Origin: Candidatus Bathyarchaeia archaeon
GTDB lineage: Archaea; Thermoproteota; Bathyarchaeia; Bathyarchaeales; Bathycorpusculaceae
NCBI GenBank assembly: GCA_038727135.1
Contig: JAVYWL010000001.1
Location: 32,001-96,000, forward strand
DNA: 64,000 nucleotides
Direction: 5' to 3'
Part shown: positions 1-12,823 of the stretch, piece after piece
Layout: each line of letters starts with the position of its first letter
How positions within the stretch are numbered: position 1 is the first letter of the stretch
Made by a program: the position numbers and the translations under genes
The notes under the pieces: model-generated
Databases searched by the model: none
The model's input: the letters and a program-made list of their open reading frames with translations, nothing else
Told to the model about the DNA's origin: nothing

Positions 1-429
1 TTGCGGAAATTCCACGTATACGGCGCTTCTGTCCGTCAAACCCTTATTGTAGGTGTCTATGGCTTCAACTGGGCATTTTTGTGCACAAAGACCGCAACCG
101 TTGCATTTCTCTTCGTTTATGTAGCGGCTTCTTTTTCGAATCTTCACTTCGAAGTTTCCGGCCTCGCCTTTCAAGTCCAAAACTTCGCTGTTCGTAATCA
201 ACGAAATGTTGGGATGTCTCCCAGCAGCAACAAGCTTAGGAGCCAAAATGCACATAGAACAATCGTTTGTCGGGAAAGTCTTGTCAAGTTGAGCCATAAC
301 GCCGCCAATGCTGGGCGACTGGTCAACCATATACACCTTAAAGCCAGAATCCGCCAAGTCTAAAGCAGCCTGTATCCCAGCAACGCCGCCGCCGACGACC
401 AGCACTGCGCCAACCTTTCCTTCAGCCAT
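1..429 (-). CDS. hdrA: Heterodisulfide reductase subunit A-like protein, 5' part (runs off window start)
   Basis: Not in ORF track. Manual minus-strand translation from ATG at 429 gives MAEGKVGAVLVVGGGVAGIQAALDLADSGFKVY...GGVMAQLDKTFPTNDCSMCILAPKLV, with the FAD GxGxxG and HdrA FPTxDCxxC motifs. Confidence 0.9.
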   Translation of the reverse strand, partial: MAEGKVGAVLVVGGGVAGIQAALDLADSGFKVYMVDQSPSIGGVMAQLDKTFPTNDCSMCILAPKLVAAGRHPNISLITNSEVLDLKGEAGNFEVKIRKRSRYINEEKCNGCGLCAQKCPVEAIDTYNKGLTDRSAVYVEFPQ

Positions 430-431
430 CT

Positions 432-1178
432 TTATCGCACCTCCAAAGCCTTATACAAAGGCGTATAACCTTCAACATGGTCTAGGGCTATCATGCCCTT
501 CCGCCTCATGTTCGTTATATGCCTCAAAACAGCAGAAGGCTTTATCCCGAGAATTTGGGCTAACTCCTTAACAGAGCGGGGCTTAATCCTCGCCAAGTGG
601 TGGATTTTGTAGCGGATGAACTCAGCCCTAACAATATCATCTAATAGGGCGTCAAACTCCGCTTCTGGGATTTTCTCGCCATAAGCGTTCATAAATTCGG
701 TTAGCTCTTCCTCTCTTCCAAGTAAAACGCGAAGCCTAAAGGCTGAAGCCGCCTCCTTAGCTGCTGTGAGATTGGCTACAATCTCCTCTTTGCTGAGCGG
801 AGAATTTCCAAGCTTCCAAACCTCTTCGGAGAACACTTTGGCGTAGTGGCTGAAGTTTTTGTCTTCTAACGGTGAGACTAACAGGAGCTTCAGTCGTTCA
901 GGCTCAAGTCCAGCCAATGCCAGCAACTTCTTCAACATTTTAACGGCGCGTTCAGCATGGAGGTTGCCATCAACAAAGTGGCAGTCTGGAGGCTTACACC
1001 CAACAAGCAGCACGCCTTCAGCCCCATTGACAAAAGTTTCCAGAATCAGCGCTGGGTCCATTCTTCCAACACACATAACGCGGATAACATTAACATTGTA
1101 AGGAACACGTATCTCTTCTTCGCAGAAGGCCCAATTACACATGAAACAAACAATTTTTGGAGGGTTAGAAGAATCCAT
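432..1178 (-). CDS. mvhD: MvhD-like [2Fe-2S] subunit fused to C-terminal winged-helix HTH
   Basis: CFMCNW, IRVMCVGR, GCKPPDCHF (MvhD motifs); C-terminal SVKELAQILGIKPSAVLRHITNMRRKGMI is HTH-like; RBS GGAGAGGTG upstream. Confidence 0.85.
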   Translation of the reverse strand: MDSSNPPKIVCFMCNWAFCEEEIRVPYNVNVIRVMCVGRMDPALILETFVNGAEGVLLVGCKPPDCHFVDGNLHAERAVKMLKKLLALAGLEPERLKLLLVSPLEDKNFSHYAKVFSEEVWKLGNSPLSKEEIVANLTAAKEAASAFRLRVLLGREEELTEFMNAYGEKIPEAEFDALLDDIVRAEFIRYKIHHLARIKPRSVKELAQILGIKPSAVLRHITNMRRKGMIALDHVEGYTPLYKALEVR

Positions 1179-1185
1179 TTCTATT

Positions 1186-2901
1186 TCACCTCTCCAAGGC
1201 TGTTAAAACCATTGAGAGAATTTGCTCGTTAGAAAGCTTCTTCATAGTTATGGCTCTCTCTGGACAACGTGCTGCACAGAGTCCACAGCCCTTGCAAAGC
1301 TCCTCATTCACTTGGGCCACGCCCTTCTCGTTCTTTTTGATGGCGCCAACCGGGCAAATGACAGCACAGACATTGCAGCCCACGCATTTACCCTCATCCA
1401 CAACAGCCTTGTCACCCTCACATAAGTCCATGCTGGCGAGGCACTCCGCACATGGTCCACAACCCAGACAGCGGAAAGCTTCAAACCTTGCTTGACGCTT
1501 AAGCTTTTCAAGATACTCCCTTGCCTCTTCAAAACTCAAGTGAGGCTTCTCTATTGGAGCGTCGTATCTGCGCTCCTTTTTTTCCAGCAACCGCCAGTCC
1601 TTAACCCACGTGGTCTCTTCAATTTTCTCCTCTTCCCTATCCTTCCGCAAGTCCTCGCCCCTCAAATAACGGTGTATGGAAACCGCTGCACGCTTACCAG
1701 CACCAACAGCCTCGATGATGCTTGCTGGACCAGTGGCAACATCCCCACCAGCAAAAATCCCCGGAACATTAGTTTCCAATGTCATGGGGTCCACTTGCAG
1801 TGGCGGCCCCCGCTTCTCTTTGCTAATAAGTTCTGGGGGCAAAACAGATGTCTCAACAATCTGTCCAAGAGCAGGAATAACCATGTCAACCTCATATTGA
1901 TGTTCTGAAAAGGCAATCGGTATTGGGCGTCTTCTTCCAGTTTCGTCAGGCTCGCCCAAGCGCATTCTCAAGCATTCAACAGCCTTAACCCGCCCATTTT
2001 CGCCTATAATCTGCTTAGGAGCCACCAAGAAATAGAACTTTATTCCATCCTTCTCGGCAAGCTCCACTTCGTGGGGTAGCGCTGGCATCTCCTCGCGAGA
2101 ACGCCTATAAAGAATCATAACCTCCTTGGCGCCAAGCTTCTTAGCAGTTCTCGCAGCGTCTATGGCTGTGTTGCCACCGCCTATGACGGCTACTCTTTCG
2201 CCAACAGCTATTTTCTTGCCTAAAGCTATCGCCCTCAAAAAGTCAACAGCATTTATTACGCCCTCCAATTCCTCGCCTGGCACATTTAATTTCATGCCCA
2301 ATTGTGTACCGATGGCGAGGAAAATCGCCTTATAACCGTCCCTTTTAAGGCTTTCAATAGTTATGTCTTTGCCAAACTCAACGCCAGTCTTTATTTCAAC
2401 GCCTATGTCCTTTATGTAGGCAATTTCGTTTGCAACAACAAATTTTTCAAGTCGGAAGTCTGGTATGCAGTAGCGCATCATGCCGCCCGGCTCAGCCATC
2501 CGTTCAAAAACGGTAACCGGATAACCCAGCTTCGCAAGTTCATAAGCCGCTGTCAAACCAGCTGGCCCAGCACCGATTATGGCTATTTTCTCGCTGTACT
2601 TCTTTGGCACCGGTTCAGCAACAACTCTTCCTTGTTCGCGTTCGATGTCTGCCACAAGCCTCTTTAAGGCGCGTATAGCCACCGCCTGGTCAAGGTTTAC
2701 TCTTGCGCATGCATCTTCACATGGGCTGAAGCAAACCCTTCCGCAAATGGCTGGGAAGGGCATGTCCCGCCTTATGACTTCAACAGCTTCCTTAAACTTG
2801 CCCCTCTGGATAAGAGCCACATAAGCCTGAACATTGACATGTGCTGGACATGCTGCTCGACAAGGAGGTAATTTCCTAACCTCTTGTAATGGCTTTTCCA
2901 T
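1186..2901 (-). CDS. GltD/NfnB(SudA)-like FAD/NAD(P)-binding oxidoreductase with C-terminal 2x[4Fe-4S] domain
   Basis: PPCRAACPAH, ICGRVC, GAGPAG, GGGNTAID, YRRS, AGGD, then two CxxCxxCxxxCP motifs; start taken at ATG 2901 (MEKPLQ). Confidence 0.85.
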   Translation of the reverse strand: MEKPLQEVRKLPPCRAACPAHVNVQAYVALIQRGKFKEAVEVIRRDMPFPAICGRVCFSPCEDACARVNLDQAVAIRALKRLVADIEREQGRVVAEPVPKKYSEKIAIIGAGPAGLTAAYELAKLGYPVTVFERMAEPGGMMRYCIPDFRLEKFVVANEIAYIKDIGVEIKTGVEFGKDITIESLKRDGYKAIFLAIGTQLGMKLNVPGEELEGVINAVDFLRAIALGKKIAVGERVAVIGGGNTAIDAARTAKKLGAKEVMILYRRSREEMPALPHEVELAEKDGIKFYFLVAPKQIIGENGRVKAVECLRMRLGEPDETGRRRPIPIAFSEHQYEVDMVIPALGQIVETSVLPPELISKEKRGPPLQVDPMTLETNVPGIFAGGDVATGPASIIEAVGAGKRAAVSIHRYLRGEDLRKDREEEKIEETTWVKDWRLLEKKERRYDAPIEKPHLSFEEAREYLEKLKRQARFEAFRCLGCGPCAECLASMDLCEGDKAVVDEGKCVGCNVCAVICPVGAIKKNEKGVAQVNEELCKGCGLCAARCPERAITMKKLSNEQILSMVLTALER

Positions 2902-3027
2902 CAAGGTTATCAGCCTTCTTAGAAGCATATTTGAATGTTAAACCAGATATATTAAGCCATCTAAACCAAACTTAACACAAAATTAACATAAAATTTCAAC
3001 ATAAAAAGAGGGGGAAATGGAGGGGGT

Positions 3028-3618
3028 TTATTCGCGAAGTCTTCCTTCGAGTTTGCTAACCCACTTGTTATATTCCCTAGAGCTTAGAAGGCTTTTGAGC
3101 TCCTCCTCAAGCGTCAAGGAGTTTTTGGGCTTGATCTCGACTATCCAACCCTCGCCATACGGATCTTCATTTACCAGGTAAGGCTTATCCTTCAATTTTT
3201 CGTTAATCTTAACGATTTTGCCGCTCACGGGCGCGTATAAATCAAACATAAACATCCAAGTTTCAGCTACACCGAAGGGCTCCATTTTGGCAACTTCCTT
3301 CCCAACGGGTTCGGTCATGATGTTTGCAATGCCTTTAAGATGCCTCTGGGCGTAGTCTGAAACACCCACACGGATGTTTCCTTCAGGGGTTATTTGCGCC
3401 CATGTGTGCTTCGGCGTGTATAGCAACTGCTCCGGAATAGCCAAAAGCTCTTCACGTTTTGCTGCTGGAATTCCCTCAGCCCGCATCAGCTCTTCTAAGC
3501 GCAGCCTTATGGCTTCGGAGACAAATTCTGATATGCTTCTGTATCGTCCTGTTCTTAGTAGTCTCTCGATTTCTTTTATTAGCTCTTGCCTTATGCTTAC
3601 GGTTTTCCATTCAGACAT
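3028..3618 (-). CDS. Ribbon-helix-helix (CopG/Arc-like) domain fused to GcvH/lipoyl-carrier-like domain lacking the lipoyl lysine
   Basis: N-term KTVSIRQELIKEIERLL..YRSISEFVSEAIR (RHH); C-term YTPKHTW..RVGVSDYAQ..DLYAPVSG..VNEDPYGEGWI (GcvH), with ETWM in place of ESVK. Confidence 0.85.
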   Translation of the reverse strand: MSEWKTVSIRQELIKEIERLLRTGRYRSISEFVSEAIRLRLEELMRAEGIPAAKREELLAIPEQLLYTPKHTWAQITPEGNIRVGVSDYAQRHLKGIANIMTEPVGKEVAKMEPFGVAETWMFMFDLYAPVSGKIVKINEKLKDKPYLVNEDPYGEGWIVEIKPKNSLTLEEELKSLLSSREYNKWVSKLEGRLRE

Positions 3619-3744
3619 TTCATATCAGCCTCCTTTACATCTGCGTGATATATAGAGCAAAGCAAAAGATATATATCTAACGTAAATAGAAAATATAGAA
3701 TAAATAATTGCGTCAAAGTAAATACTATAAATAGAGGGAAGCCT

Positions 3745-4818
3745 TTGGAAATTAGAAAAGTTCAAAGAGTAGGACATTCAACAATGACTGTTTCGCTTCC
3801 AAACGAGTGGATTAAAGAACACGGCATAAAGCCGCGAGACCTACTATTCATATTGCCAGAAAGGGACGGCTCCCTAAAAATAATGCCGAGGCACATAGCC
3901 CAAAAAGAGGAAGCCGAAGAATACATTGTTAATGCAGATGCATGCGACGAGCCGGGAATGCTTGAAAGAATAATTGTTGGAAGCTACATTCTAGGACGGG
4001 ATGTTATACGGGTAATCTCAACAAGCCGCATAGGTAAAAACCACGTAGACGAAGTTCGGAGGATAGTTCAAAAACTTATTGGGTTGGGCATCCTTGAAGA
4101 GACCCCTAAAAGCATACTCTTGCAGTGCTCTATAGACTCTACGAAGTTCAAACTTGACATGCTCATACGGAGGCTTGCCCTAATAGCTTCAACAATACTT
4201 TCTGAGGCTATGCAAGGCTTTAAGGAGAAAAAATATGACATTGTGGAGGAAGCCATCGCACGGGAAGACGAGGCTGACAAAATCTACTATTTGGCGGTGC
4301 GTCTGCTTCTTTCCGCGCAAGTGAAACCAGCCATAGCCGAAGAGGTTGGCATGGTTGACGTACTTTTTATACCAGCTGCAAGGCTGATTCTGCAGTACCT
4401 GGAGCTGGTGGCAGATTATTCCGAGGACTTAGCTAAGGAGGTTCTTGAAATGGAGATTTACAGAAATAGGCTTCCAGAGGATGTTGTTGACAGAATATTC
4501 CATTTAAGCGAGCTAACTCAGACAATTCTCCAGAAATCTATTGAATGCATCTTCACAAGGGATTTGAAGGTTGCAAACCAACTTCTTGAAATGAGAAAAG
4601 TGCTTGAGGTGGACTCCAATAGGCTTATGAGGGAAGCCCCAGAAATCCCCTATGTAAGGTCTATTCTCTCTTGCCTAAGCAAGATTGCTGACAAAGGCGC
4701 CACAATAGCTGAAATAGCCATAAACAGAGCCTTAGAAGATCCGAGCAGGTATGTTGGCGATGTTGTCAGAGCAGTTAAGCATGTTAGAACTCTACCATTG
4801 ACTATTGGAAAGAAATAG
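3745..4818 (+). CDS. PhoU-family regulator with N-terminal AbrB/SpoVT domain
   Basis: EIRKVQRVGHSTMTVSLPNEW (AbrB-like), REDEADKIYYL and LELVADY PhoU repeats; typical archaeal architecture. Confidence 0.85.
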   Translation: MEIRKVQRVGHSTMTVSLPNEWIKEHGIKPRDLLFILPERDGSLKIMPRHIAQKEEAEEYIVNADACDEPGMLERIIVGSYILGRDVIRVISTSRIGKNHVDEVRRIVQKLIGLGILEETPKSILLQCSIDSTKFKLDMLIRRLALIASTILSEAMQGFKEKKYDIVEEAIAREDEADKIYYLAVRLLLSAQVKPAIAEEVGMVDVLFIPAARLILQYLELVADYSEDLAKEVLEMEIYRNRLPEDVVDRIFHLSELTQTILQKSIECIFTRDLKVANQLLEMRKVLEVDSNRLMREAPEIPYVRSILSCLSKIADKGATIAEIAINRALEDPSRYVGDVVRAVKHVRTLPLTIGKK

Positions 4819-4909: not shown

Positions 4910-5374
4910 ATGAGTGATGATTTTGAAGAGGCTTTAAGGAACATAGACGTCTTCTGCAAAGTTTTAGCCAAAAAACTGGTGGAAAGCCTTAGGATAGAAG
5001 AAAGCGAGGGAGAAAATCCCCTAGAGCCTATGGAGGGGCTTTTGAAAAGGAAGTATGTTATTGAGGAAAGGTTCGAGGAAAGCCCAACCGTCAAACATTT
5101 TATTCCACTGCCCCATGCTGAAGAGCCCTTAATAGACATTTTTGAAGACGAAAATTATGTTAAGGTTCTGATGCAGTGCCGCTGCAGAGACCAGCGGGTG
5201 ACAGTAAACAAGTTTGAGGATGGCTTACAAATATGCTTGGAAAATACTTGCTGGAAGCTCAACCTTCCAGTTGATGAGCTGCAAGTGGAAAACATAATTA
5301 TGAAGTGCAACAACAATGAGGCTTTGGAGGTTGAAATTCCGAAGTTAAAGACAACTGTAAACTACAGAAATTAA
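4910..5374 (+). CDS. Hypothetical protein, C-terminal Hsp20/alpha-crystallin-like region
   Basis: EEPLIDIFEDENYVKVL...LNLP...NNEALEVEIPK resembles small heat-shock domain. Confidence 0.5.
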   Translation: MSDDFEEALRNIDVFCKVLAKKLVESLRIEESEGENPLEPMEGLLKRKYVIEERFEESPTVKHFIPLPHAEEPLIDIFEDENYVKVLMQCRCRDQRVTVNKFEDGLQICLENTCWKLNLPVDELQVENIIMKCNNNEALEVEIPKLKTTVNYRN

Positions 5375-5649: not shown

Positions 5650-6102
5650 TTAAATTGTGAGAACCGCGTTTAAGCCCTCCGTTTTAGCTGCCTCATAAAC
5701 CCTTTTATCGCCAGTTAAGAAGTTCGTGGCATTTACCGCTTTAGCGGACACTATTTGGAGGGCGTCCGCCTGATACAAATGATGCTTTTCTAAGAGGCGC
5801 CAGCTTTCAATAAGTAACCTAAAACGTATAGGAATTAGCCTTAAAACTCCTAAACGGGCAAGCCTTCTAGTTTCTAGGAGGAACTTGCCTTTGGCTATTA
5901 AGTAATTTCTATTGCTTAATATGCCTCTTACGTGGGCTTTGTCAAAGGCGCCGAGCACCTCGCCTATGTTCCAAGAGTTGAATGTGATGGTTAATTCGCC
6001 AGAATAGGCTTTAAGATAAACCTCTTTAGCAATTTTACTTCCAGGCTCCTTGACGTAACGTTTAACCAGACTACTGGAATCAAGATAGACTACTTCTTTC
6101 AT
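5650..6102 (-). CDS. vapC: PIN-domain toxin (VapC family)
   Basis: VYLDSSSLVKRY..E, ADALQIVSA, FLTGDKR acidic PIN motifs; overlaps upstream small gene. Confidence 0.85.
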   Translation of the reverse strand: MKEVVYLDSSSLVKRYVKEPGSKIAKEVYLKAYSGELTITFNSWNIGEVLGAFDKAHVRGILSNRNYLIAKGKFLLETRRLARLGVLRLIPIRFRLLIESWRLLEKHHLYQADALQIVSAKAVNATNFLTGDKRVYEAAKTEGLNAVLTI

Positions 6103-6346
6103 CCCTCATAGTCCTCACAAGGGTACTTACAAGGCCTTTTTTAGGCTTAACAGGCTCAAAATCTATCTCATAGTCTTCAGTGTTTTCTATGTCTTTAACA
6201 GCCTCGTCGAGGAGTTCCTCTACAAGCTCATCCTTAATGAGGTCTTCAAGGGCTTGACTTATTTCTAGGCCTCTCCTCGCTAGGCTTGATTTGTACTTTT
6301 CCCATAGCTCCTTGTCTGCATATATGCTGGTTTTTACTTTGCCCAC
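6080..6346 (-). CDS. Putative antitoxin (VapB-like, RHH-type N-terminus)
   Basis: 88 aa, KTSIYADKELW..ISQALEDLI, ends LVRTMRDER; overlaps vapC start. Confidence 0.75.
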   Translation of the reverse strand: MGKVKTSIYADKELWEKYKSSLARRGLEISQALEDLIKDELVEELLDEAVKDIENTEDYEIDFEPVKPKKGLVSTLVRTMRDERSSLS

Positions 6347-12747: not shown

Positions 12748-12823
12748 TTAATGAAGCTAGATTATTGCAGCTTCTATAATTTAAATTTAGCTAATTTAGT
12801 AAATAGAAAATATGCTTCATTAA
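12748..12823. promoter_or_regulatory. Inverted repeat TTAATGAAGC..GCTTCATTAA in mvhG upstream region
   Basis: Perfect 10-bp inverted repeat at 12748-12757 / 12814-12823 in an AT-rich intergenic region. Confidence 0.35.

Follow-up and report, generated by a model that had tools for sequence, protein, structure and literature searches.

A GcvH-fold protein without the lipoyl lysine, joined to a putative ribbon-helix-helix domain, as a probable regulator of hydrogenase and heterodisulfide-reductase operons in Bathyarchaeia

Bathyarchaeia are abundant, uncultured archaea, and to our knowledge neither a substrate nor any regulation is known for their Hdr/Mvh-type (heterodisulfide reductase and hydrogenase) complexes. 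NikR is a nickel-responsive repressor that has an N-terminal ribbon-helix-helix (RHH) domain followed by a C-terminal regulatory and tetramerisation domain, and its operator consists of two half-sites 16 bp apart. We know of no small RHH regulator or antitoxin that carries the fold of GcvH, the H-protein of glycine cleavage. GcvH-like lipoate-binding proteins (LbpA) are reported to partner the sHdr system of sulfur oxidisers, and their genes to be linked to Hdr-like genes (PMC6067878; PMC10332631), and GcvH-L of Streptococcus and Staphylococcus, from the SirTM/macrodomain operon, is described as a lipoic acid carrier (PMC12440151). Here we describe a gene at positions 3028 to 3618 (minus strand) of a 64,000-nucleotide stretch from a Candidatus Bathyarchaeia archaeon (contig JAVYWL010000001.1; hereafter the window), the product of which joins a putative RHH domain to a GcvH fold that has lost the lipoyl lysine. 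Judging from its sequence and setting, this RHH-GcvH-like gene most likely encodes a regulator of the neighbouring hydrogenase and heterodisulfide-reductase operons.

The 196-residue translation product includes FGVAETWMFMFDLYAPVSGK, and the gene is divided as follows (positions are those of the window):

3028 to 3618, minus strand: coding sequence of the 196-residue RHH and lysine-less GcvH-like protein (P0001), from the open reading frame (ORF) list, its translation and homologues
3475 to 3618, minus strand: putative RHH domain, residues 1-48, from sub-threshold profile matches
3049 to 3438, minus strand: GcvH-fold domain, residues 61-190, from the Pfam GCV_H match and from Foldseek and VIA-align comparisons with solved H-proteins
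3244 to 3258, minus strand: hairpin tip W121-M122-F123-M124-F125, with Met122 at the lipoyl-lysine position, from alignments

We are confident that residues 61-190 form a GcvH fold. Pfam GCV_H matched residues 65-188 (E 5.7e-31), and in the AlphaFold2 model (mean predicted local distance difference test score, pLDDT, 84.3) the C-terminal domain was matched by Foldseek to 1onl_A (E 1.2e-13, template modelling (TM) score 0.91 on target) and by VIA-align to 1dxm_A (Z 21.6, root-mean-square deviation 1.2 Å over 128 residues). GcvH-L (5a35) was also recovered (Foldseek E 6.3e-6, VIA-align Z 15.0). The claim of a first-pass annotation, made from the letters of the window and its ORF list, that the fold is otherwise well conserved was therefore sound. 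An ESM Atlas search with the protein returned only GCV_H-named Bathyarchaeota clusters. Source databases name the protein GcvH because the loose NCBI subfamily model NF002270 passes (125.3 bits, cut-off 117) while the equivalog model TIGR00527 fails (103.6 bits, cut-off 115.85).

The same annotation held that the lipoyl lysine is replaced by methionine, and alignment placed the substitution exactly there. Met122 (codon ATG, 3255-3253 on the minus strand; the plus strand reads CAT) stands in the hairpin ETWMFMFDLYAPVSG and aligns with the lipoyl lysine of the genome's canonical GcvH (L001, 139 residues, lipoyl motif VESVKAVSDL) in a gapless BLASTP alignment (131 columns, 41% identical). HMMER alignments to solved H-proteins also put Met122 on the lipoyl lysine, and with methionine in that column lipoylation at the canonical site is impossible. 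The lysine-bearing GcvH (C1:697239-697595) and GcvT (C1:728555) are far off in the genome, about 660-690 kb from the RHH-GcvH-like gene (GcvP was not searched for), which makes the RHH-GcvH-like copy a spare one. The genome has two BPL_LplA_LipB matches, both on contig C2. Weak GCV_H matches at C2:251312 and C2:261696 were considered as paralogues and rejected, being biotinyl proteins of the biotin carboxyl carrier type (EAMKM).

The loss of the lysine is a property of the whole family. Of 1598 candidates from a word-index search, 1262 were homologues with E ≤ 0.001. The best 120 were 83-100% identical, 195-202 residues long and came from Bathyarchaeia metagenome-assembled genomes (MAGs) and metagenomes; all 120 kept the hairpin core ETWMF[MILV]FD. 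Cysteine was absent from 118 of these 120, so a thiol or Fe-S (iron-sulfur) switch is excluded for this subtype. For wider comparison we used a family set of 131 ORFs shorter than 300 residues from 107 loci (80 genome and 27 metagenome contigs), in which the lysine column held methionine 102 times, tryptophan 17, proline 10, serine once, a gap once and lysine never. The substitution is accordingly no private mutation of this genome. Among 50%-identity cluster representatives, all those with the N-terminal extension were without the lysine, and ordinary GcvHs showed ESVKA.

A maximum-likelihood tree of 89 rows placed all 22 RHH-bearing and 10 N-truncated rows on one side of a single branch (Shimodaira-Hasegawa-like approximate likelihood ratio test, SH-aLRT, 97) and all 44 lysine-bearing rows on the other, consistent with a single origin of the RHH-GcvH-like family. 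Five rows labelled 'noK' (P0169, P0170, P0184, P0224 and P0267) do carry lysine (KW motif); they fall outside the RHH clade and the split is unaffected. Tandem copies of the gene occurred in 23 of the 27 metagenome loci and two of the 80 genome loci, with a type 2 copy ahead of type 1. Type 2 is a paralogue with 40-48% identity and a longer hairpin (for example ETVARWPLVIHDL), and the types form separate clades with supports of 99 and 98.

It is hardly credible that the protein still functions as an H-protein or lipoyl carrier through modification of another residue, or that the methionine is a sequencing or assembly error. The passing NF002270 score and the source name speak for a carrier, but TIGR00527 is not reached, a canonical GcvH is encoded elsewhere in the genome, the column is without lysine in all 131 ORFs and the hairpin core is the same in every one of the best 120 homologues. 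The lysine that occasionally occurs two residues past the lipoyl column (WMFKF) is not conserved in the family.

The N-terminus is very probably an RHH domain: none of the sub-threshold matches and model features decides the matter singly, but they all point one way. Pfam RHH_1 matched residues 6-43 (E 0.0018, 18.6 bits; curated cut-off 20.5), and NCBIfam models for ParD antitoxin (3.7e-5), YlcI/YnfO_N (6.7e-5), CdrS (0.0016) and NikR (0.009 and 0.013) matched in a single register at residues 6-45, each under its cut-off. In a 25-member family alignment (A3), where 17 members have the N-terminal region, RHH_1 was matched by eight members (best E 9.7e-5) and ParD_antitoxin by four. A profile of 20 N-termini gave the RHH of Helicobacter pylori NikR as its top match in the PDB (E 0.02), and a narrower one gave ParD, NikR and CopG-family chains at E 0.03-0.8. 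The full-length AlphaFold2 model shows an extended stretch at residues 1-8 and then helices at 9-23 and 29-47; VIA-align superposed residues 8-51 on the ParD2 antitoxin 7b22_A (Z 4.6). In the strand, W4, T6 and R10 are invariant or nearly so in the family, as is the helix SxSEFVSEAIRLRL. RHH proteins are obligate dimers of beta-alpha-alpha subunits in which a two-stranded sheet, one strand from each subunit, reads the DNA major groove. A two-copy complex prediction with alignment A3 scored 0.32, 0.39 and 0.30 (mark 0.42; one control 0.34), which speaks neither for nor against dimerisation. The N-terminal RHH fusion proposed in the first-pass annotation thus stands as an RHH-like region, while every profile match to it is below threshold.

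ParD-type antitoxins are the best sequence matches of this N-terminus, and an antitoxin-like protein of a toxin-antitoxin or plasmid-partition module would account for that. We consider this very improbable: the neighbour tables put a toxin gene beside the gene in none of the 107 loci, the neighbours are conserved chromosomal redox operons, and the C-terminal domain is a GcvH fold.

The genes on either side of the RHH-GcvH-like gene are these:

1 to 429, minus strand: start of HdrA, which runs off the window and has 1010 residues in the genome (ORF list, genome context)
432 to 1178, minus strand: MvhD (FlpD) fused to a C-terminal ArsR-like winged helix-turn-helix (HTH) domain (Pfam FlpD 1.1e-31, HTH_20/HTH_5; NCBIfam)
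1186 to 2928, minus strand: GltD-like NAD(P)H Fe-S flavoprotein, first gene of the downstream hdr/mvh operon (Pfam; NCBIfam NF009410, 523 bits)
3745 to 4818, plus strand: divergent gene for a 357-residue protein with an AbrB/MazE-like DNA-binding domain and two PhoU domains (Pfam PhoU 3.1e-14, MazE_antitoxin 9.4e-6)

The position upstream of an hdrA/mvhD operon, as first annotated, is correct. Nine genes follow on the same strand, encoding GltD-like, MvhD-HTH, HdrA, MvhD, HdrC, HdrB, MvhG and MvhA proteins and a maturation protease. The AbrB-PhoU gene was the divergent upstream neighbour in 68 of the 80 genome and 20 of the 27 metagenome loci (88/107; unmatched ORFs shorter than 100 residues are skipped in this count), and the loci without it mostly had a contig end or an acetyl-CoA-synthetase-like gene in its place. 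A GltD-like homologue was the nearest downstream neighbour in 65 of the 80 genome and 22 of the 27 metagenome loci (87/107). For the 80 genome loci the nearest downstream ORFs were:

GltD-like homologue: 65
ORF of 323-335 residues: 10
ORF of 256 residues: 1
other or contig end: 4

Of the 11 ORFs of intermediate size, family membership was checked for two, both of them TauE/SafE permeases. In loci L058, L069 and L076, the TauE loci with a longer downstream flank, the permease gene opens a second operon type, in which TauE is followed by a 124-residue protein, NuoE-, NuoF- and NuoG-like proteins and an [NiFe]-hydrogenase; no Hdr genes were seen in the fetched flanks of these three loci. In two other TauE loci (L072 and L079) a gltD-like gene comes next. 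About 11 of the 80 genome loci have the RHH-GcvH-like gene at the head of a TauE-type rather than a gltD-like operon. Tandem paralogue pairs with 40-63% identity kept the synteny as well. Hdr is thus no strict companion of the protein, which is tied to AbrB-PhoU and to redox operons that contain a hydrogenase. Linkage to hdr genes across homologues holds in part: the gltD-like operon persists down to about 40% identity, and the TauE/hydrogenase context takes its place in the remaining operons described above. The 124-residue protein between TauE and the NuoE-like gene (L069:7707-8081, plus strand; P0300) is without a Pfam match and is conserved in the second operon type.

The family is confined to part of the class in our sample. 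Full-length matches (E < 1e-60) were present in 23 of 87 genomes of the window's order, its own included, within a 301-genome sample of the class, and, among the matches listed, in none of 214 genomes of other orders; weaker matches further down could include diverged copies. One distant cluster bears the source name 'Baldrarchaeota'. A gltD-like orthologue stands beside the gene in G145, G163, G082 and six more genomes; G196, G250, G106, G178, G056 and G136 have the gene without such an orthologue.

Lysine-less GcvH-like domains also occur in an unrelated family of large proteins from Anaerolineae and others (P0132 and P0303-P0316), which form 15 clusters of 950-1400 residues with one to three such domains. 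Their fusion partners are FAD_binding_4/FAD-oxidase_C (GlcD-like) together with Fe-S and two CCG domains (HdrD-like), and 32 of 33 aligned GcvH-like segments are without lysine at the lipoyl column. A separate oddity is P0138, a 185-residue metagenome protein in which a partial MoCF_biosynth domain is joined to a lysine-less GcvH-like C-terminus of type 1 (ETWMFKFE); the gene call is possibly chimeric.

These observations bear on the idea, put forward in the first-pass annotation, of a transcription factor that uses its GcvH-like domain as a mimic of a lipoyl protein, which docks on Hdr, or on enzymes that handle lipoate, and reports the state they are in. The fold stays near GcvH in other respects (41% identity to the genome's own), hdr linkage is conserved, the Anaerolineae fusions of GcvH-like and HdrD-like domains give a Rosetta-stone hint, and LbpA proteins are reported to partner sHdr (PMC6067878; PMC10332631). 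On the other side stand the roughly 11 genome loci that head an operon without Hdr genes in the fetched flank, the six genomes that have the protein but no gltD-like orthologue, and the absence of lipoate ligase genes from the vicinity. Because the gene also occurs in an Hdr-less operon context, docking on Hdr is not the general mechanism, and it is possible as a special case; as an account of the family we find the mimic quite unlikely. The transcription-factor part of the proposal is the best reading we have, and the evidence for it is indirect: the weak RHH matches, the conserved promoter elements and the pairing with AbrB-PhoU.

The divergent intergenic region between the RHH-GcvH-like and AbrB-PhoU genes is 126 bp long (3619-3744). 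It and the associated spacer and promoter hold the following elements:

3629 to 3635, minus strand: AAGGAGG ribosome-binding site, conserved, 11-17 nt before the ATG (upstream alignment)
3648 to 3654, minus strand: proximal TATATAT box (upstream alignment, genome scan)
3669 to 3676, minus strand: distal TATATAT box, probably a TATA box; its start is 21 nt from that of the proximal box
3682 to 3696, minus strand: 15-mer ATATTTTCTATTTAC, directly upstream of the distal box
3717 to 3726, plus strand: palindrome AGTAAATACT (GTAWWTAC block)
12799 to 12813, minus strand: the 15-mer again, lying 67-81 nt ahead of a second mvhG/mvhA/hdrA-mvhD/hdrC/hdrB operon
2929 to 3027, minus strand: spacer to the gltD-like gene (alignment of 18 spacers, conserved blocks)
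minus strand, blocks within that spacer: C-rich/oligo-T at 3003-3014; TGTTAA repeats at 2972-2977 and 2983-2988; TTAATATAT box at 2947-2955

Both TATATAT boxes were kept in 24 of 28 aligned upstream regions, and the sequence between them drifts. Distant tandem-pair loci have the same order of blocks, judged by eye. By regular expression, the double box, at a fixed distance, was found in 73 of 96 family upstream windows of 130 nt and in 112 of 14928 background windows from the same loci, and GTAWWTAC in 54 of the 96 and 225 of the 14928, counts that are to be read as footprints. The double box mostly starts 54-57 nt before the ATG, and a looser pattern placed it also at 88 and 106 nt. In the 1.55-Mb genome TATATA-N12-17-TATATA occurs at two places only, here and at C3:131459; the latter seems unrelated and was rejected as a related site, since it lies in a low-complexity, palindromic, non-coding stretch. 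That stretch includes a perfect 24-nt palindrome, TATATACTTAAATTTAAGTATATA (C3:131459-131482), within A/C-rich and G/T-rich low-complexity DNA without a convincing ORF.

The 15-mer ATATTTTCTATTTAC links this promoter to another redox operon. It has exactly two copies in the 1.55-Mb genome (about 0.01 expected by chance, by base-composition arithmetic). The first is 64-78 nt upstream of the RHH-GcvH-like gene and the second is in front of the second mvh/hdr operon, in a promoter stretch at 12774-12813 (minus strand). TTTCTATTTAC, the core of the 15-mer, followed by the TATA-like CTAAATTTAAATTATAG, stood upstream of the second operon in three of seven relatives and, with one mismatch, in a fourth. 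Shorter TTCTATTTAC matches on contig C2 were discarded as further sites: they fall inside coding ORFs.

Conserved features of the gltD spacer, namely the oligo-T stretch, the TGTTAA repeats and the TTAATATAT box, suggest that the downstream gltD-like operon has its own promoter and that the RHH-GcvH-like gene would be transcribed mainly alone. An Rfam search of positions 2800-3900 gave a chance-level match only (E 0.81), and a sigma-70 and terminator scan gave nothing of note; such signals are not relevant to archaeal promoters. Contigs of X1 and X2, both labelled metatranscriptomic and flagged 'probably DNA', had a summed depth of 167-560 over 3241-3780; the bins on either side mostly had 0-90, with up to 113 over the first 180 bases of the window. 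These depths are not usable as an expression level, as they sum over related organisms and the gene is highly conserved. The raw-read RNA runs X3 and X4 gave 0 reads in the roughly 3% of each run that was read, which says nothing about expression.

A protein encoded at the head of redox operons need not be a regulator. It may instead belong to the Hdr/Mvh and NAD-linked hydrogenase complexes as a subunit that has an accessory, scaffolding or assembly role and does not bind DNA, with the N-terminus as a dimerising helical handle and the GcvH-like domain as a protein-protein module. The gene does lie directly ahead of these operons, in the same orientation and with a strong conserved ribosome-binding site, and the Anaerolineae fusions show lysine-less GcvH folds working inside Hdr-like enzymes. 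We nevertheless think a subunit rather unlikely. The N-terminus matches DNA-binding RHH families only; the gltD spacer, with its conserved oligo-T and its own TATA-like box, suggests separate transcription; and the Anaerolineae hairpins are Arg/His-rich, longer and unlike WMFMF, and group apart on the tree. Since one and the same gene heads, and would serve, two different operon types, a regulator fits better than a fixed subunit.

We return to regulation, the reading that we favour on the weak RHH profile matches, the conserved promoter elements and the pairing with another gene that encodes a DNA-binding domain. It is reasonably probable that the protein is a NikR-style RHH regulator whose GcvH domain, unable to be lipoylated, takes up a signal or brings about oligomerisation. 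The fold, the loss of the lysine, its family-wide conservation, the synteny and the conserved cis-elements are established. Dimers formed through the RHH module would recognise conserved elements in the gene's own divergent promoter; the candidate targets there are the pair of TATATAT boxes with their 21-bp spacing, the neighbouring TTTCTATTTAC and the AGTAnnTACT palindrome. The promoter of the second mvh/hdr operon would probably be read as well. The GcvH-derived module, with its aromatic hairpin tip W-[M/W]-F-x-[F/Y/H], would be the signal-receiving part, the oligomerising part or both, and a signal could reach the lysine-less domain from a partner or ligand through that hairpin. The divergently encoded AbrB-PhoU protein would act as co-regulator, and the controlled operons would be GltD-MvhD-HdrABC-MvhAG or TauE-NuoEFG-like-[NiFe]-hydrogenase. 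We infer DNA binding, the pairing of protein with element, the sign of regulation and the signal from sequence and gene order.

Several observations weigh against this reading. No RHH model of Pfam or NCBIfam reached its curated cut-off for the protein, and the structural likeness to an RHH antitoxin is weak at Z 4.6. The isolated N-terminal 50 residues were modelled as two helices without a strand and a Foldseek search of the PDB with them came back empty, although a monomer model is uninformative for a fold whose strand forms only in the dimer. The compared upstream regions share ancestry, so that the counts overstate independence, and the boxes were not seen in L074, L078, L083 and L084. 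It may be that the TATATAT boxes are simply the TATA boxes of two divergent promoters. The conserved elements could also belong to any of three nearby proteins with DNA-binding domains, that is, the RHH-GcvH-like protein, AbrB-PhoU or MvhD-HTH.

A bolder version of the regulator, which we hold to be rather improbable, makes the lysine-less GcvH domain a new sensor and tetramerisation core, with two RHH dimers bridging both TATATAT boxes in a NikR-like geometry and the aromatic hairpin docking on a redox partner. The hairpin would then occupy the place of the lipoyl arm and might dock on AbrB-PhoU, on an Hdr or hydrogenase subunit or in a lipoyl-binding pocket. Were this true, transcription of the machinery that bifurcates electrons between H2 and disulfide would follow the state of that machinery, and lysine-less GcvH folds would be a recurrent interaction module of Hdr-like systems, as the Anaerolineae fusions also suggest.

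Some neighbouring features deserve mention in their own right. The MvhD-HTH protein (432-1178; HTH_20 7.6e-6, ArsR/MarR-like) is an electron-transfer subunit with a DNA-binding domain and is encoded by the second operon gene in most related loci. A 154-residue ORF without a Pfam match at E ≤ 0.01 (4910-5374, plus strand) adjoins the AbrB-PhoU gene and is kept there in most related loci. At 5650-6346 (minus strand) a 150-residue ORF and an overlapping upstream ORF of 88 residues resemble a toxin-antitoxin pair by eye, the 150-residue ORF being labelled 'PIN' on that basis. In one metagenome locus (L110:1443-3578, plus strand) the RHH-like N-terminus of the family continues in frame into a 711-residue ORF, the rest of which is acetyl-CoA-synthetase-like by eye; this ORF could reflect a deletion, a genuine fusion or a chimeric assembly. 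Four further loci have an acetyl-CoA-synthetase-like gene as their upstream neighbour.

If the regulator reading is right, the RHH-GcvH-like and AbrB-PhoU pair, together with the candidate operators, offers a handle on the timing and cause of hydrogen-dependent electron bifurcation in these archaea. It would also be a case in which a cofactor-carrier fold was reused, after the cofactor site was lost, as the effector domain of a predicted transcription factor. What appears to be new here is an RHH regulator with a new effector domain; full-text literature searches, with subscription journals outside their scope, turned up no account of an RHH domain fused to GcvH or of a regulator built on a lysine-less GcvH. 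There is a practical consequence as well, in that more than 1000 database entries called 'glycine cleavage system protein GcvH' are misnamed and can inflate glycine-cleavage reconstructions in these MAGs.

Compared with GcvH itself (PF01597, TIGR00527), the protein has the same fold at about 40% identity and retains the flanking motifs HxW, DYAQ, DLYAPVSG, NxDPY and GW. It differs in the change of the lipoyl lysine to Met, Trp or Pro across the family, in the additional N-terminal domain, in a gene position that is not beside gcvT or gcvP, with which a GcvH gene is typically linked, and in its score below the TIGR00527 cut-off. GcvH-L is likewise a GcvH paralogue recruited outside glycine cleavage, but it is without a DNA-binding domain and only 16% identical to the RHH-GcvH-like protein. 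LbpA shares the genetic linkage of a GcvH-like protein to Hdr-like genes. The first-pass annotation had leaned on this parallel, and its defining features fail here: in LbpA a conserved lysine bears the lipoate, and genes for a ligase of its own and for LipS1/S2 accompany it, whereas the RHH-GcvH-like protein is without the lysine, and no lipoate ligase gene was found near its gene (up to 15 kb away the neighbouring genes are Hdr/Mvh, AbrB-PhoU and others; LipS1/S2 were not searched for). The neighbours are, moreover, of HdrABC/MvhADG type and not sHdr.

On the regulator side, the N-terminal 45 residues match the models of CopG, ParD and haloarchaeal CdrS in register, but those proteins have a single domain or short toxin-binding tails. 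NikR comes closest. Its C-terminal domain is an ACT-like nickel-binding domain and not the hybrid barrel of GcvH, and no His/Cys metal site is evident in the RHH-GcvH-like protein, which has no cysteine and two histidines. The two nonetheless share a domain order in which an RHH is followed by a beta-rich domain of about 130 residues that does not bind DNA. The NikR RHH is the top PDB profile match, two NCBIfam NikR models match weakly, and both proteins are linked to hydrogenase genes. The pair of TATATAT boxes, two helical turns apart, also resembles the geometry of the NikR operator.

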